From contig DATFXM010000030.1 of NCBI GenBank assembly GCA_035315885.1, forward strand, positions 38,619 to 102,618: DNA of 64,000 bases, in the 5' to 3' direction. This DNA is from Blastocatellia bacterium (GTDB lineage Bacteria > Acidobacteriota > Blastocatellia > UBA7656). The position numbers and the translations under genes were made by a program. How positions within the stretch are numbered: position 1 is the stretch's first letter; each line of letters begins with the position of its first letter. Below the pieces are notes generated by a model, which ran no database searches, was not told where the DNA came from, and was given only the letters and a program-made list of their open reading frames with translations. Below, piece by piece: positions 19,262 to 27,887 of the stretch.

Positions 19262-19278
19262 GGCAACGTGGGGGCCAG
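19262..19278 (-). promoter_or_regulatory. Candidate sigma-54 (-24/-12) promoter for the AAA+ ATPase gene. Minus-strand sequence is TGGCCC-N5-TTGCC.
   Basis: The minus strand reads CTGGCCCCCACGTTGCC, with GG and GC separated by the canonical 10 nt. It lies ~150 nt upstream of the ATG at 19115. It is one of three conserved cassette copies. Confidence 0.4.
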
Positions 19279-19316
19279 TGCTAACTTGCTGAAAACATTC
19301 GGTGTGGGATCGAGGG

Positions 19317-19355
19317 TTCGCGAATTTCTCGCGAAAGGTCGCAAGAACATCGCCG
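19317..19355 (-). promoter_or_regulatory. Conserved dyad element (TTCGCGA-ATTTC-TCGCGAA followed by CGCAAGAAC), a candidate bEBP upstream activating sequence. Cassette copy 1.
   Basis: Perfect inverted repeat read from the sequence. Its centre lies ~60 nt upstream of the -24 element. Copies at 23571-23611 and 26626-26665 show a compensatory change. Confidence 0.4.
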
Positions 19356-21868: not shown

Positions 21869-22735
21869 TCATCTCACCGAAGCCGCGACGCGGCGAGTCA
21901 CCTGGTCGACGAAGCCATCGGCTACGCCGCTCAAAGCGTCGCGCGGTGACAGAGGGCCGAGCAGGCTTGACCCACCCGACTTGCCGGAGACGATCTGTCT
22001 GCCGATTTCTTCGCCGGTGTCCTTGTCGTAGTAGCGTAGCCGAACCGTCAGGATGGACTTACCAAGGTCGAGGGGTAGCGCTTGTTTGATGCGATTCCCC
22101 TTAGCGTAATCCAGCACTTCGATCACTGCTACCAGCGTCAGGTCTGCATCCGGTTCGGCCTTTCGATCCGGAGTGAGTCGTAGCTTGTCTCGAGATTCCA
22201 TGTCTGAAAAGCTGCCGATTGAAGAATCAAGAGTATCGTCCGGTGGGCTGACCGTGCGTTCAGAGTTCGCTTGGACTCGTTTCTCCGCCTGGCCTGCAGC
22301 CCCGGGCTTGTAACTATCAACAACCGTCACCGAATCAAAGATCTTTCGCTCTTCGAACTGAGACTTAAATTTGTCGAGCTGGTGATCTGCGACCTGTGAT
22401 GTTAAGGCGTTTCCAACAAAGCTAACGGGCCCTACAATCTCGAGATGATGATAGTCGGCCAGGTTGCCTTTGAAGGGAATGATTGTCGTGACTCGGAAGT
22501 CCCCTCCCATCACGACTGTCTTAATACTGACGATGCCGTTCTTCCCTTTGTAGTTCACCAGTTTCTCACGATTCTCTGTGGTAAGGCGGAAGCCCTCGGC
22601 GGGCGGCTGGGCAACTTCTGGTTTGGGCTGGTCCGATATGGATTGCGCCAGGCCGGTCACCGAGAAGCCGAGTATGAACAGAATCGCGAAGGGCAAACTG
22701 TTCCGGGTCGTGTAGCGTCTTGCATTACTTGCCAT
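21869..22735 (-). CDS. Hypothetical secreted protein, paralog B of a tandem pair (start reassigned to ATG 22735)
   Basis: GGAGG lies 9 nt upstream of ATG 22735. Signal peptide (MASNARRYTTRNSLPFAILFILGFSVTGLAQ). C-terminal region aligns with its neighbour 22725..23393 (LTVRLRYYDKDTGEEIGRQIV vs LTLRITLRDKQTGRTLGETNI). Confidence 0.55.
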   Translation of the reverse strand: MASNARRYTTRNSLPFAILFILGFSVTGLAQSISDQPKPEVAQPPAEGFRLTTENREKLVNYKGKNGIVSIKTVVMGGDFRVTTIIPFKGNLADYHHLEIVGPVSFVGNALTSQVADHQLDKFKSQFEERKIFDSVTVVDSYKPGAAGQAEKRVQANSERTVSPPDDTLDSSIGSFSDMESRDKLRLTPDRKAEPDADLTLVAVIEVLDYAKGNRIKQALPLDLGKSILTVRLRYYDKDTGEEIGRQIVSGKSGGSSLLGPLSPRDALSGVADGFVDQVTRRVAASVR

Positions 22736-23393
22736 ATGCCAGCGCCTCCTTGGGTCCGTTGTCGTGACTCGTCGTGCTGCCAACGAAGTGAGCTACCTCG
22801 TCCGCCGCTTTGACCACCATTCTTGGGACATTGCTGGTGACGCGCGTGTTCTCGACGGTGATATTCGTCTCCCCGAGCGTCCGCCCCGTCTGCTTGTCCC
22901 TGAGCGTGATGCGAAGAGTTAGCACTGCGTGGTTATTACCCTGCTCGATATATCGAAGCGCCGGTATTCCCGGGGTGTAGTCGTCTATGTATCCCTCTAC
23001 GATGAGCTCTTGCGGGGCTCCAGCAGTGGCGACTTCAGAGGCGGACTGATTAACGGCGCTTTCTGAAGGATTCGGCGCTTCTACGTGCGTGACGCGTTCA
23101 AAGCGATTGAGCGCTCGGGTTCGGTTTAGTATCTCAGTGTTCAATTGGGTGACCACCGTCTCGGGGATCTGATCGAGCATGAGATTCTCTAATGGACGGA
23201 CCTCGACGCGGCGATAAGCGCGCAGATCTTCAGTAACCGGGGATATCTTGTAGGAGCGCGTCCTCAAGCCGTGGACCTCCCGAAAGATGCGCGAAGGTAC
23301 GGAGTTGGCGACGCCGCGGACGGAACAGCCGTAGCTTACCGCTGCTACGCTTACGCCTAATGCACATATGATTGCTTTGCAAGTTAGTCTCAT
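22725..23393 (-). CDS. Hypothetical lipoprotein, paralog A of a tandem pair (start at ATG 23393)
   Basis: GGAG lies 5 nt upstream of ATG 23393. Lipoprotein signal (MRLTCKAIICALGVSVAAVSYGC). C-terminal similarity to 21869..22735. No known motif. Confidence 0.55.
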   Translation of the reverse strand: MRLTCKAIICALGVSVAAVSYGCSVRGVANSVPSRIFREVHGLRTRSYKISPVTEDLRAYRRVEVRPLENLMLDQIPETVVTQLNTEILNRTRALNRFERVTHVEAPNPSESAVNQSASEVATAGAPQELIVEGYIDDYTPGIPALRYIEQGNNHAVLTLRITLRDKQTGRTLGETNITVENTRVTSNVPRMVVKAADEVAHFVGSTTSHDNGPKEALAYGK

Positions 23394-23519
23394 TGGTTCT
23401 CCAGCGCACATCTAATGGTTCTGGTTATTCTCCGGTTGGAGCGAGGAGGCCCACGTACGAGGTCGTCAATAGGTTAGTACGGAGTGTCGCACTGTCCTCT
23501 TCGCTCCGTGGATAACAAA

Positions 23520-23537
23520 GGCAAAGTGGAGGCCAAT
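23520..23537 (-). promoter_or_regulatory. Candidate sigma-54 promoter (minus strand TGGCCT-N5-TTGCC) for the lipoprotein/VWA/TonB transcription unit. Cassette copy 2.
   Basis: The minus strand reads TTGGCCTCCACTTTGCC, GG-N10-GC. It lies ~125 nt upstream of ATG 23393. Confidence 0.4.
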
Positions 23538-23570
23538 CTTAAGTTGCTGATATTAATCAGCCGGTGATCT

Positions 23571-23611
23571 TCGTTCGTGAATTTCTTGCGAAGAGCCGCA
23601 AGAACCTTGCC
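23571..23611 (-). promoter_or_regulatory. Conserved dyad/UAS element, copy 2 (TTCGTGA-ATTTC-TTGCGAA ... GCAAGAAC)
   Basis: Aligns with copies at 19317-19355 and 26626-26665. A second overlapping dyad TTCTTGCG-N6-CGCAAGAA is perfect here. Confidence 0.4.
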
Positions 23612-23716
23612 TCTGGAATTGCGATAAGACGGTGAGTTACTCTCCGGAGTTCAAGCAAAACGCTGCTTCGCTGTGAATTTATTAGGTGGAATGCGCTGTA
23701 GGCAAACAGGTTTGTG

Positions 23717-25408
23717 CTACGAGAGTCCAGCTCGACGCAGGATTTCCTGGAACCGTGGGTCATCGCGCAGCGGGTCGAGAAGCGGTTCAATTCTGAGTAG
23801 AGGCCCGAAGACGCCATAAGACTTGTCCAATTCGGCGAGCGCTTTTTCCTTTTCGCCGAGTGCAGTTAGAAACACGACGGCGTCGTATCGAGAAAGGTTG
23901 CCGAGCTGATCTTTCGCGGTCATCGCTCGCAGACATCCGTGCCAGCCATCCTTCGCAAGGCTATCTCGTATCAATGCTGCACCTGAACGATCGCCCATTA
24001 GCTCTCGGTAGGTGGCGTAGCTATGCGCTGCGTCGACGTAATTCTGATTCGCCTGATAGTACTTCGTGAAACGCTGATAGGTGCCTGCGTATTCAGTATT
24101 CAGTTCGAGCGTCTTCTTAAGTTGAGCGATCGCGTCGCCGTACCGCCGCGCGTAAAAGAGACTTTCGGCATAGTCCAAATTGATGACCAGTGACAGCGGA
24201 TCGATCTCCAGTGCTTGCTGGAATTCAGCAAGCGACTCCTCGTTTCGCCCGAGGTAGAAGAGCAGAATGCCGTACCATTGGTGAGCAGTCGCGTAATTCG
24301 GGTTTAGTTCGATGGCTCGTTTGTATTCGCGCTCCGCTTCCGCGAAGTCACATTCGTGTGAGAAAACGTGTCCGAGAGTTGCGTGCGCCTCGGCTAAGTC
24401 GGGGTCCAGCGACAAGGCCTTCATCGCGGCCTCTCGCGCCGCCGGCATAGCTTCGCGCACCGGCCCGTTTCGATAGAATGGAAGCACCGCATACGTATCC
24501 GCGCGACCTGCGTAGGCCAATGCGTAGCTCGGGTCAAGCTCGATTGCTCGATTGAAATACTCGAGAGCTTTTTCCAGATCCTTCAATGTTCGCTTGTTCC
24601 AATAGAAGCGCCCTTTCAAATAGAGCTGGTAGGCTTCGGGATCTGTCGTGTACTTCTTCGACAACTTCTGCTCCTCGCCGCCCACGAGCTTCATTCGCAA
24701 TTTGGTCAGGACGTCGTGAGCAATCTCGCTCTGCAAAGCCACGAGATCGGACTGCTTTCGAGTGTATTGCTCGCTCCAGATCACGTTTTCTGTTCGTGCA
24801 TCAGCCAGCTCCAGGCTGAGCGTCAACAAATCGCCGCGCACAGCTATGCGGCCGTTTAGGACCGCCTGGACGTTCAAGTCCCTGCCCACCGTACCCGGCG
24901 CCACATCCTGGCCTTTGTAGCGGAAGACCGACGATCGAGCCTTAACATTTGGAATCGGAAGCTGAGACAGGTTGGAGATCAGCATTTCCGTCATTCCGTC
25001 TGAAAGATAGTCGAGCTGCTGGTCAGCATTGACGTTGAGGAAGGGCAAAACGGCGAGCGAAGAGATGCCGGCCCTACCTTTCCCTGACAATAAGTAGTGA
25101 GCTAATCCAGTCAACGCAAGTGCAACGATCGCGGCAAGGACAGCTTTGCCGATCCTCTGCCTTAGCCGTCCGGCAACGAATGTTAAGATTCTGGCTTTAA
25201 ATAGCTGGATCCGGCCCCATCGGCCGGTTTGCGCTCTTTCAGAGTTCTCAAGTACGGTGGTAGACGCCGTTGACCCTGGGCGTGGAAGAACGGCAGTTCT
25301 CATATCAGAGGCCGACTCGTCGACCACCACTAGCCGGGCGCCATCGATGCGACAAAAAGCGAGCGCGTCGTCTGTCTCAACGTGATCACATTGAGGACAG
25401 CTTTTCAT
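23717..25408 (-). CDS. Zinc-ribbon / TM / periplasmic TolB_N-like domain / TPR-repeat protein
   Basis: N-terminal CPQC...C zinc ribbon, a single TM (AVLAAIVALALTGLAHYLL), a periplasmic domain (LAVLPFLNVNADQQLDYLSDGMTEMLISNLSQ...) resembling TolB N-terminal/CsgG-like modules, then about 8 TPR repeats. Confidence 0.7.
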   Translation of the reverse strand: MKSCPQCDHVETDDALAFCRIDGARLVVVDESASDMRTAVLPRPGSTASTTVLENSERAQTGRWGRIQLFKARILTFVAGRLRQRIGKAVLAAIVALALTGLAHYLLSGKGRAGISSLAVLPFLNVNADQQLDYLSDGMTEMLISNLSQLPIPNVKARSSVFRYKGQDVAPGTVGRDLNVQAVLNGRIAVRGDLLTLSLELADARTENVIWSEQYTRKQSDLVALQSEIAHDVLTKLRMKLVGGEEQKLSKKYTTDPEAYQLYLKGRFYWNKRTLKDLEKALEYFNRAIELDPSYALAYAGRADTYAVLPFYRNGPVREAMPAAREAAMKALSLDPDLAEAHATLGHVFSHECDFAEAEREYKRAIELNPNYATAHQWYGILLFYLGRNEESLAEFQQALEIDPLSLVINLDYAESLFYARRYGDAIAQLKKTLELNTEYAGTYQRFTKYYQANQNYVDAAHSYATYRELMGDRSGAALIRDSLAKDGWHGCLRAMTAKDQLGNLSRYDAVVFLTALGEKEKALAELDKSYGVFGPLLRIEPLLDPLRDDPRFQEILRRAGLS

Positions 25409-25505
25409 AACAACTCACGATCGCTTTCAACGTGTGTCGACATTCAACGCATCGGCTTGTTCAAAGCTTCTGTCCAAAGTAAGGGGGCGGAGCCACCGGC
25501 TGACG

Positions 25506-26381
25506 TCAAGAACTAAGACCCGAAGCAACCCGCGGCGCCAGGGCGCCTAAGAGAATGTCATAGAACCGCCCTTTCAAATAACGCCGGTAGACGTCCGCAT
25601 TTGTCGTGTACTCGCTCAACAATCTCTGATCATCGGTGTTCGGCAGTTTCACGCGTAGTTTGGCGGCGACGTCGCCGGCAATTTCGCTCTGCAGGGAAAC
25701 AAGCTCACCTAGTTTGCGTCTGTATTGCTCGCTCCAGATCACGTTTTCCGTTAGCGCATCGGCCAGCTCCACACTGAGCGTCAAAATGTCGCCGCGCTGA
25801 CTGATGTGTCCGTTTAAGATCGTCTGTACGTTTAACTCTGCAGCAACCGTACGTGGAGGAACATCCATGCCTTTGTAGCGAGACACGGAGGAAATTGACT
25901 TTACGCTCAAATTCGGAAGCTGGGATAAACTTGTGATCAGCGTTTGGGTCATCCCGTCTGAGAGGTAGTTAAGCTGTTGGTCGTTATTGATACTAGTGAA
26001 CGGCAAAACAGCCAGCGATTTATTGACCGAATTGCTCTTGAGAGAGAATGAGGAGTAAACCACTAGCAAGGCAATCAACGTGGCGATGGCTATCACGCGC
26101 ACTCCGATCTTGTCCCTCTTCTTTTCCATAAAACTGCCTTCACTTGTTTTGCTGGACAACTTTGCTGAGCTCGTCGATGCGGCAGGTCGATCTAAGACCC
26201 GGTTCGATTCGACAGGCGGATCTAAGACTGTGGTCGATACGATGGCAGCGTGAGGTTGAAGGGCAACCGTTTCATCATCGATAAGCGACTGGCTATCGAA
26301 AACGATTCGACCACCATCGGTGCGACAAAAAGCCAAGGAATCATCTGACGGGACACGTTTGCATTTAAGACAGCGTTTCAT
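25506..26381 (-). CDS. Truncated paralog of 23717..25408 (zinc ribbon + TM + TolB_N-like domain only). Possible pseudogene or decoy.
   Basis: Same architecture up to YLKGRFY, then an unrelated 17-aa tail. Nucleotides 25680-25800 are ~85% identical to 24720-24840. Confidence 0.5.
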   Translation of the reverse strand: MKRCLKCKRVPSDDSLAFCRTDGGRIVFDSQSLIDDETVALQPHAAIVSTTVLDPPVESNRVLDRPAASTSSAKLSSKTSEGSFMEKKRDKIGVRVIAIATLIALLVVYSSFSLKSNSVNKSLAVLPFTSINNDQQLNYLSDGMTQTLITSLSQLPNLSVKSISSVSRYKGMDVPPRTVAAELNVQTILNGHISQRGDILTLSVELADALTENVIWSEQYRRKLGELVSLQSEIAGDVAAKLRVKLPNTDDQRLLSEYTTNADVYRRYLKGRFYDILLGALAPRVASGLSS

Positions 26382-26574
26382 ATCAACTCGTTTCGCTAGA
26401 GCCTCGGGTGACGGAGATTGGCCCTGAAGGGAGGATCAGTTTGCGACCGCCGCAAGTCCCTCGTACTGACAAGAGAGTCATCAACGCTATCGCGAACAGA
26501 CATCCCGGAAAGAAAGTTTTCGATTGGCTGATCATCGCCTCACCTCCTTTTGAGCACGCAGCCGCGAATTGTGA

Positions 26575-26590
26575 GGCAACGCGAGGACCA
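26575..26590 (-). promoter_or_regulatory. Candidate sigma-54 promoter (minus strand TGGTCC-N5-TTGCC). Cassette copy 3.
   Basis: The minus strand reads ATGGTCCTCGCGTTGCC, GG-N10-GC. It lies ~190 nt upstream of ATG 26381. Confidence 0.35.
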
Positions 26591-26625
26591 TCCTAAGTTT
26601 TTGATTCTTAGTTGGGACGCTCTCG

Positions 26626-26665
26626 TGTTCGCAAATTTCTTGCGAATGTCCGCGAGAACGTTGCC
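26626..26665 (-). promoter_or_regulatory. Conserved dyad/UAS element, copy 3 (TTCGCAA-ATTTC-TTGCGAA ... CGCGAGAAC)
   Basis: Perfect inverted repeat. The central G-to-A change relative to copy 1 is matched by a C-to-T change in the partner arm, so the dyad is preserved. Confidence 0.4.
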
Positions 26666-26738
26666 TTTGTATCCAGTTGATCGGTTGCGTCTGAGGGAGG
26701 GGAGACGATCTGCGGGGCAAGGTAAATTACATCAACGT

Positions 26739-27887
26739 CTACGCTGCGCTGAATGATGCGCGAGCGGGCCAGTCGACGACTTGATGCTTGAAGCGTCGCT
26801 TGTCGATTTTCAACATTTTGATTTTTGATTCTAATGTAGAGGAAGGGATGCCAAGCAGCGAGGCTGCACCGAACGGCCCGGATACTCGCCCCTTGCTTTC
26901 GACAAGGGCTGCTTCGATGGCGTCTTTCTGTTGAGTCGCGAACGAGCGTTGCGAACGCATCTCCGCTCCCGCTGCCGCGGCAGCAGCGGCACGCGCCCTC
27001 GACGGTCGTGCGGAGAGCCATTGCTCATCGATGTACAACGACTCCGAGTCGGAGACGATTACCGCTCGTTCCACGAGATTCTGCAGCTCTCGCACGTTGC
27101 CAGGCCAGCCGTACGACTGCAGCAGGCTCAAAGCCTTCTTGCTGATCATGTTGATTCTTTTCCCGGCCCTCGCGGCGATGCGGTGAGTGAAGTACTCGAC
27201 AAGAAGCGGAATGTCCTCCAAACGTTCGCGCAGCGGAGGCATTTCCAGCGGAAACACGTTCAGGCGGTAATACAGATCAGATCGGAACGTCTTCTCCTCG
27301 ATGGCAGCTTCCAGGTCCCGGTTGGTCGCGGCAATCACTCGAACGTTCACGCGTATTGGGCGATTACCGCCAACGCGCTCGAACTCACGCTCTTGAAGGA
27401 CTCGTAACAGCGTCACCTGGATCTCCGCGGGAAGCTCGCCGATCTCATCAAGGAAGATCGTCCCGCCGTCCGCCAATTCGAAGCGGCCTTGTCGGCGCTG
27501 CATCGCACCGGTAAACGCGCCCTTCTCGTGGCCGAAGAGCTCCGAGGCGATGAGCGACGGAGGGATCGCAGCGCAGTTGACGCTTATAAAAGGTCCATTA
27601 CATCGTCGTGATCGCTTGTGGATCGCTCGTGCGACGATCTCCTTGCCGGTCCCGGTCTCACCAGTGATCAACACGGTCGAATCTGTTGGAGCGACTTGGG
27701 ACACTTCCGATAGTACCGATCGTAAGGACGCCGAGATGCCGACGATTCCTTCGAACATTGAAGAACTGTCCGGCTGGTCACCGAAGACGATGTTGTCTTG
27801 AAGTTCGATGTCCCGGTCTATGACATCGTAAGTTGTGCGTTCAATCGGTTCCTGAACCCGGCGATGATCAGCAAAATAATTGCTCAT
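26739..27887 (-). CDS. Sigma-54-dependent transcriptional activator (PspF-like, no sensory domain), paralog of 16569..17663
   Basis: Walker A GETGTGKE, GAFTGA, and a C-terminal HTH (AASLLGIPSSTLESKIKMLKI). Only ~45 aa precede the AAA+ core. Confidence 0.85.
   Translation of the reverse strand: MSNYFADHRRVQEPIERTTYDVIDRDIELQDNIVFGDQPDSSSMFEGIVGISASLRSVLSEVSQVAPTDSTVLITGETGTGKEIVARAIHKRSRRCNGPFISVNCAAIPPSLIASELFGHEKGAFTGAMQRRQGRFELADGGTIFLDEIGELPAEIQVTLLRVLQEREFERVGGNRPIRVNVRVIAATNRDLEAAIEEKTFRSDLYYRLNVFPLEMPPLRERLEDIPLLVEYFTHRIAARAGKRINMISKKALSLLQSYGWPGNVRELQNLVERAVIVSDSESLYIDEQWLSARPSRARAAAAAAAGAEMRSQRSFATQQKDAIEAALVESKGRVSGPFGAASLLGIPSSTLESKIKMLKIDKRRFKHQVVDWPARASFSAA

Follow-up and report, generated by a model that had tools for sequence, protein, structure and literature searches.

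The window analysed here is a 64,000-nucleotide stretch of a contig from a Blastocatellia bacterium (DATFXM010000030.1), and our subject is a pair of neighbouring genes on its minus strand. The short gene (25506..26381, minus) encodes 291 aa and is a truncated family member; the long gene (23717..25408, minus) encodes 563 aa and is a full-length one, with an N-terminal module, a tetratricopeptide repeat (TPR) array and a "TPR end-of-group" C-terminus. Both open reading frames (ORFs) are present where an earlier model-made note on this DNA, the sequence-only reading, had placed them, and they have their N-terminal architecture in common, as it had claimed. BLASTP aligns residues 1-274 of the short protein with residues 1-269 of the long one (139 of 277 residues identical, 50%, E 2e-79), an identity that spans the Cys motif, the transmembrane (TM) helix and the TolB-N-like domain, and the conserved core is 72-73% identical in nucleotides (24602-25060 against 25560-26018). 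The high nucleotide identity that had been claimed near 24720-24840 is there (78.5%, with a peak of 90% in 24762-24801), but in a register of +958, not +960. The two genes are the only copies of the family in the 64-kb window, which holds no third.

Like the Pyrinomonadaceae TolB-like/TPR family to which they belong, both proteins have a CxxC-x11-C-xx-D motif, a low-complexity linker, one TM helix and an alpha/beta periplasmic domain; the short copy differs in having neither the TPR half nor the C-terminal motif. Across 99 aligned homologs C4, C19 and D22 of the Cys motif are invariant and C7 is conserved in at least 90%, and all four are present in both window genes. Zinc binding by this motif is presumed, and neither window gene's motif has a Pfam zinc-ribbon match. 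In the short gene the Cys motif occupies aa 1-30 and is followed by a disordered linker (32-90) that contains a 10-aa internal duplication, a TM helix at aa 93-113 (26043-26105), the TolB-N-like domain at 121-245 (25647-26021) and, after aa 245, helices ending in helix A of the first repeat, TPR1. The linker duplication (aa 52-71, 26174-26233) is a 30-nt tandem repeat, 73% identical, encoding VLDPPVESNR and VLDRPAASTS; it is a lineage-specific insertion that the other aligned family members do not have.

Modelled with AlphaFold2 on the 99 homologs, the short protein is predicted to have a small N-terminal beta element carrying the Cys motif (predicted local distance difference test score, pLDDT, ~78), a disordered linker over residues 32-90, the TM helix spanning 93-113 and, over 121-245, an alpha/beta domain that scores above 90; confidence then drops along the helices after residue 245 into the tail, which scores 47-56. 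In Foldseek searches, residues 121-245 match FlgT, the TolB N-domain, GNA1162, PelC and LpoB (E 1e-7 to 1e-6, probability 1.00, 115-171 aligned columns), so that the "TolB_N/CsgG-like" call of the sequence-only reading is sound. Both copies carry the periplasmic-domain motifs LAVLPF, YLSDGMT, LSQLP, RYKG and W-x-EQY. Pfam gives the long copy a weak FlgO match and TPR matches from residue 273 onward, and its C-terminus corresponds to NCBIfam TPR_END_plus (41.7 bits, cut-off 32). The short copy has no Pfam match at all, TPR included; the C-terminal TPR array, some 290 aa ending in the LLDPLRDDPRF motif, is missing from it, and no TPR remnant is found in any frame.

The homology between the two genes breaks off abruptly. 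As had been noted, the proteins diverge after YLKGRFY and the short one stops 17 residues later, and the nucleotide alignment of both loci places the breakpoint at nt 25560: the last homologous stretch, TATTTGAAAGGGCG(G/C)TTCTAT, encodes YLKGRFY and ends there, Tyr274 being the last homologous codon (25560..25562, minus). Beyond it lie a non-homologous 17-codon tail, DILLGALAPRVASGLSS, with its stop (25506..25559, minus; TGA at 25506-25508), which gives the short-specific peptide FYDILLGALAPR, and a 97-nt spacer before the long gene (25409..25505, minus). Everything past the first TPR helix is gone, as the earlier claim of a truncation after the periplasmic domain implies, but the cut falls within TPR1 helix A and not at a clean domain boundary. 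Searches with the short protein give the same end point elsewhere: no match in the 136 related loci, and hardly any among the 150 best representatives, extends beyond about residue 273-276. Against a profile of 237 family C-termini the tail scores -1.5 bits, which is not significant, and on that score we dropped the candidate of an in-frame internal deletion that kept the C-terminal motif (RF|YDILLGAL... compared with DPRF|QEILRRAGL). A sensitive blastn search of 138 loci and the window returned only self-matches for the 149 nt past the breakpoint, so a deletion mechanism, a microhomology or a mobile element is not recoverable from them.

A family this repetitive, with many frameshifted copies in metagenome assemblies, invites the suspicion that a chimeric join or a collapse of paralogs has mimicked a truncation. 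The junction itself makes this very improbable. The same junction and flanks are found in the JGI contig Ga0066904_10002779 (L059), with 5 mismatches in 4640 nt, and the junction recurs at 100% identity in Logan contig L002; the source of both is a soil metagenome (JGI 3300018419; Logan SRR5262249), and neither contig differs from the window at any position inside the short gene. The same tail also ends the SRC protein P0001 and NCBI HMG32935.1. Since the junction recurs in independent assemblies and no flanking repeats are present, an assembly artefact is unlikely, and a single assembler is not to blame; the sequence past the breakpoint is unique and offers no repeat that could drive a collapse.

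The genes are adjacent paralogs on the same strand, and to that extent the tandem duplication proposed by the sequence-only reading stands. The short copy is not, however, a recent duplicate of its neighbour. Its nearest relative is a full-length gene of 566 aa from another organism (L060, 508..2208); the two agree at 56% of positions over residues 1-274 and at 68% within the domain. In a 157-column alignment of the domain, the long copy is 72-80% identical to its counterparts in L061, L121 and L078 and only 64% to the short copy. Neighbour-joining bootstraps are 80% for short with L060, 1% for short with long, 66% for long with L061 and L062, and 82% for all five together. Derived residues in common number 19 for short and L060 against 11 for short and long, and the otherwise variable TM segment reads KIGVRVIAI in both short and L060. 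The two window genes are thus old paralogs and not recent duplicates, the short copy belonging on this alignment to an older "A-type" lineage and the long copy to a "B-type" one.

This bears on the model implicit in the sequence-only reading, in which the short gene was born truncated by a partial tandem duplication running from the promoter through codon 274 of the long gene. The layout fits such an event, with the short gene directly upstream on the same strand and with homology from about 10 nt ahead of the ATG (the two have GAGTTGnTATGAAA in common). The grouping of short with L060 and of long with L061 and L062 goes against it, as does the greater domain identity of the long copy to the orthologs of other organisms than to the short one. 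Moreover, the GAGTTGnnATG context also precedes the L060 gene and is hence a feature of the subfamily, and the upstream regions of the two window genes are otherwise unrelated. We consider an origin in this way improbable. Because the sister gene in L060 is full-length, the short copy descends from a gene that possessed the TPR half, and its truncation is a derived state.

The long gene has syntenic orthologs in L061 (65%), L121, L062 and L073, at 58-65% identity. In L061, L062 and L073 they lie near homologs of the window's von Willebrand factor A (vWA), TonB-C (p354), ClpB-like (p393) and sigma-54 activator genes; the functional linkage of the long gene is conserved and the locus is rearranged. 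Because these orthologs keep its neighbourhood, the long copy is presumably the conserved, working member of the pair. The orthologs at L061 3-2856, L062 2-1822 and L073 2-2478 stand directly downstream of vWA, TonB_C (p354) or ClpB-like (p393) homologs, in a gene order that differs from the window's. The closest A-type gene, in L060, sits in a different neighbourhood from the window. Eight nt past its stop, at L060 2214-2285, a new family start occurs (MKSCPHCGLFVKNDALLAFC..., MKSCPHC...) with a stop at codon 24; it lies near the contig end and may reflect the decay of a copy or a misassembly. Such a start behind an A-type gene hints at an old A-then-B gene order.

The size and turnover of the family provide the background against which a single short copy has to be judged. 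At E<=1e-10, a phmmer search of 1.8 billion representatives recovers 37,343 representative clusters that contain the periplasmic module; the homologs come overwhelmingly from Pyrinomonadaceae, and a length of 550-600 aa is typical of members opening with the Cys motif. The long copy is 40-65% identical to many of them. JGI and NCBI annotations name these proteins "TolB-like protein / TPR (PilF-like)" membrane proteins of Pyrinomonadaceae/Blastocatellia, and we found no literature specific to the family. Tight tandem arrays are seen among the 136 related loci, L008, L009 and L026 being examples, and a stretch of 17 kb can contain as many as seven copies. Head-to-tail arrays of 4-7 copies with spacers of 15-250 nt occur in L003, L007, L008, L009, L026 and others. 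Some representatives (P0123-P0133) are 1000-2800 aa long and carry 2-7 periplasmic modules; they are giant proteins with a true multi-module build or else the result of read-through across arrays.

Among ~272 copies with the periplasmic domain in the 138 loci, 220 are full-length, and contig ends cut most of the others. Seventeen are disrupted within a contig: about half are frameshifted, with the remainder of the gene in another frame, and the other half are deletion-type truncations scattered over positions 193-479. The family is massively amplified in Pyrinomonadaceae and continually gains and loses copies. The sequence-only reading had said that an independently conserved short family would make the gene a genuine short paralog, and no such family was found: across the 138 related loci, at least 519 homologs and the short representatives that we inspected, the tailed short form occurs in this strain cluster only. 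Candidate TPR-less representatives (P0040, P0183, P0211, P0230, P0242 and P0142) proved to be mid-TPR contig cuts or to have out-of-frame tails. A full-length upstream copy at an orthologous locus was likewise not seen, the same gene order occurring in no GTDB species representative or JGI metagenome.

The short copy also departs from its relatives within the part that it retains. At 86 positions conserved in at least 90% of homologs it differs at 15, against a mean of 2.65 for the 98 other homologs (standard deviation 1.9, maximum 10), which makes it the most deviant of the 99; at the same positions the long copy departs at 4, L060 at 7 and L061 at 1. The replacements include F167S, R163I, R192H and A264V. 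A strain variant of the protein, P0001 (SRC, SRR5262249), is 96% identical, with the same length and tail and 13 differences, and 7 of these fall on positions conserved in at least 90% of homologs (3.8 expected at random), 6 of them destroying the consensus residue. Base composition has shifted as well: GC is 50.1% and GC at third codon positions (GC3) 58% in the short gene, and 55-57% and 62-67% in all neighbouring genes.

Several observations weigh against decay and have to be set beside these. The frame is uninterrupted through 274 homologous codons; C4/C7/C19/D22, the TM helix, YLSDGMT, LSQLP, RYKG, TENVIWSEQY and LQSEIA are all kept; and the alpha/beta domain is modelled at pLDDT above 90. 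Rate tests of the short copy against L060 are not significant (19 against 12 unique changes; 15 against 7 changes at conserved sites). On a rough estimate, the ~8 excess replacements at conserved sites would correspond under neutrality to ~40-50 substitutions and several indels in the 822 nt; an open frame is unlikely after so much neutral change, and constraint would therefore be relaxed, not clearly absent. P0001 is known as a protein without DNA on record (no contig is on record for it or for NCBI protein P0121) and may hold assembly errors, and five of its changes are clustered within 9 residues. This cluster of 5 of the 13 differences turns SLAVLPFTS into LLAAVRFTM, with loss of the invariant LAVLPF of the protein encoded at 25506-26381; clustered mutation, a conversion tract or misassembly may account for it.

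These observations lend some substance to another reading, that the short ORF has been kept as a functional paralog without TPRs which modulates its long neighbour or other family members, displaying a membrane-anchored TolB-N-like domain and acting as a decoy, a dominant-negative form or a co-receptor through its TM helix or periplasmic domain. Besides the intact frame, the preserved Cys/Asp motif, TM helix and core motifs and the confidently predicted fold, it draws on the position of the gene, which is first behind a promoter cassette and has its start coupled to that of a small upstream ORF whose Shine-Dalgarno sequence is strong. Further, at least two strain variants carry the same 291-aa form, and the surplus of changes at conserved sites could mean a changed function and not a lost one. 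Yet no independently conserved short family was found anywhere we searched, the cut lies within a TPR helix and leads into a random-looking, low-confidence tail, and scattered truncations are common in the family. The changes of P0001 fall on invariant residues more often than chance would place them, the opposite of purifying selection, and GC and GC3 have drifted down. We regard retention for a function as possible and the less likely of the two outcomes.

Pseudogenes are recognised in more than one way, and the short copy gives different answers. Its frame is open for 291 codons and has a promoter cassette and a coupled ORF, so that neither a disrupted frame nor missing signals are seen. 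Ancestral coding sequence has been lost, given that L060 and 220 other copies are full-length. It is unlike a classical disrupted pseudogene in its open frame and expression-competent position, and like the remnants of birth-and-death families in its lineage-restricted loss, its conserved-site replacements, its compositional drift and the many disrupted copies around it. Of the two fates that the sequence-only reading had offered, a decoy and a decaying pseudogene, the second is favoured by the signs of relaxed constraint and decay, which do not settle the choice.

We therefore favour, with a probability of about 0.55, the view that the 291-aa ORF is a decaying but still open and co-transcribed 5' remnant of a once full-length family member. 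Its TPR half was lost secondarily, in an event with one end inside TPR1 helix A and with nothing remaining of the missing part; the truncated form is limited to one strain cluster, in which an unusual number of replacements at conserved sites has since piled up. The remnant would now be the leader cistron of an operon, lying between its sole sigma-54-type cassette and the intact B-type gene, and would probably be translated through coupling to the small ORF upstream. Its product would be anchored in the membrane, would lack TPRs and would have lost its function or be losing it, and the long copy would be the working gene, with a link to vWA, TonB-C, ClpB-like and activator genes that is conserved in related organisms.

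The expression context on which this view partly depends begins with cassette 3. Its upstream activator-type element (26627..26669, minus) contains the palindrome TTCTTGCG-N6-CGCGAGAA at 26637-26659, and 47 nt downstream of the palindrome lies a sigma-54-type -24/-12 element, TGGTCCTCGCGTTGC (26576..26590, minus). The 43-nt repeat of this cassette matches 23573-23615 at 81% identity, and the window contains three instances of the palindrome TTCTYGCG-N6-CGCRAGAA (at 26637-26659, 23583-23605 and 19326-19348), where 0.03 are expected. A TGG-N9-TTGCCT element follows each palindrome at 47-49 nt, with TGG and TTGCCT invariant in the three cassettes, and the cassettes align throughout. By itself the -24/-12 match is at chance level; its support is the conserved spacing across the three. 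With GG-N10-GC, an upstream activator site and an adjacent gene for a sigma-54 enhancer-binding protein (EBP), cassette 3 has the features of a putative sigma-54 promoter. The cassettes, at 19263-19348, 23521-23615 and 26576-26669 (minus), all lie downstream of one sigma-54 activator gene. They head, respectively, a ClpB-like AAA+ gene, a p228-p304-vWA-TonB_C unit and the small ORF-short-long unit.

The sequence-only reading had given the short copy its own cassette-3 promoter. The repeated cassette upstream is real, but it is the sole cassette for the pair. The 97-nt spacer holds no cassette, no sigma-70-like site and no terminator, nor a stable hairpin; it folds worse than shuffled sequence (z = +1.85). 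Because there is a single cassette and no terminator between them, the short and long genes would be co-transcribed from one sigma-54 promoter, and we infer that the remnant would be transcribed regardless of its usefulness.

Between cassette and short gene lies a small ORF of 50 codons (26383..26535, minus), with the Shine-Dalgarno sequence AAGGAGGTGA 7 nt before its ATG and a TGA that ends 1 nt ahead of the short gene's ATG. It is called as a gene on L001 and L002 and has a hydrophobic, signal-like N-terminus; no homolog of the 50-aa product was found, and the ORF is either a real leader peptide or a mere coupling device. In the unit headed by the second cassette, the genes p228 and p304 (21869-23411, minus) overlap by 59 nt and have lipoprotein-like or signal-like N-termini; neither has a Pfam or NCBIfam match.

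Directly upstream of cassette 3 is the EBP gene (26739..27887, minus), whose 382-aa product consists of an AAA+ domain and HTH_8 and has no N-terminal sensory domain. Its relative in L061 (3266-6454), 66% identical, is encoded by an ORF of 1062 aa and carries six PAS domains. The window EBP may have lost its N-terminal part and be constitutively active, or it may be under control in trans; given the six PAS domains of the L061 relative, its sensor-less state may itself be a truncation.

Comparison with known systems helps to place both the proteins and their promoter. The periplasmic domain of the short copy resembles the fold of the TolB N-domain, LpoB, PelC, FlgT and GNA1162, being predicted as an alpha/beta sandwich of ~120-130 residues. 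Unlike the window proteins, those are soluble proteins or lipoproteins and are not TM-anchored behind a Cys motif, and at 13-18% sequence identity the likeness is one of predicted structure. With CadC of E. coli, a ToxR-like membrane one-component regulator (PDB 3LY7 for its periplasmic domain), the window proteins have in common a cytoplasmic N-terminus, one TM helix and a periplasmic alpha/beta domain followed by a helical subdomain. Matches to NCBIfam PRK10153 are weak (31.4 bits, E 9e-8, for the short copy and 40.4 bits, E 1.7e-10, for the long copy, at a cut-off of 400), and the Foldseek match of 3LY7 to the short copy (E 3.6e-4, TM-score 0.30) is weaker than those of the TolB-N type. They differ from CadC in that their cytoplasmic part is only the ~30-aa Cys motif and their helical part is canonical TPR; neither copy has a winged-helix (Trans_reg_C) or other DNA-binding match in Pfam or NCBIfam.

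The EBP resembles PspF-type sigma-54 activators in consisting of AAA+ and HTH_8 only, and it matches the phageshock_pspF model at E 3.7e-90, below the cut-off. As in PspF-type systems with an upstream activator site and a -24/-12 element, the three candidate cassettes combine a palindrome with TGG-N9-TTGC at fixed spacing. Unlike those systems, the locus shows no PspA, PspB or PspC homologs, and the L061 relative of the activator has six PAS domains. A more elaborate proposal can be built on this likeness, namely that the TPR-less protein is deliberately kept, as the first large cistron of a sigma-54 operon under a sensor-less, PspF-like activator, to serve as a membrane-anchored partner or antagonist of its long neighbour, and that the pair couples an envelope signal, received by the TolB-N-like/TPR ectodomain, to the activator through the cytoplasmic Cys motifs. 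We hold this to be improbable; if it were true, a protein family unrelated to Psp would here form a trans-regulation circuit of the Psp-like kind.

The short gene is a fresh instance of a familiar phenomenon, a remnant in a fast-turnover multigene family, and as such an ordinary outcome. The truncation alone carries little weight and is mainly a caveat for annotation: in a Blastocatellia metagenome-assembled genome the identical protein is annotated from M85 as a 207-aa hypothetical protein. Its context matters more than the truncation does, because it consists of a very large uncharacterised family and of a long gene in a conserved vWA/TonB-C/ClpB-like/activator neighbourhood with three near-identical cassettes. 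If the short form proved to be under selection, it would amount to a natural domain-deletion experiment on the role of the TPR half.

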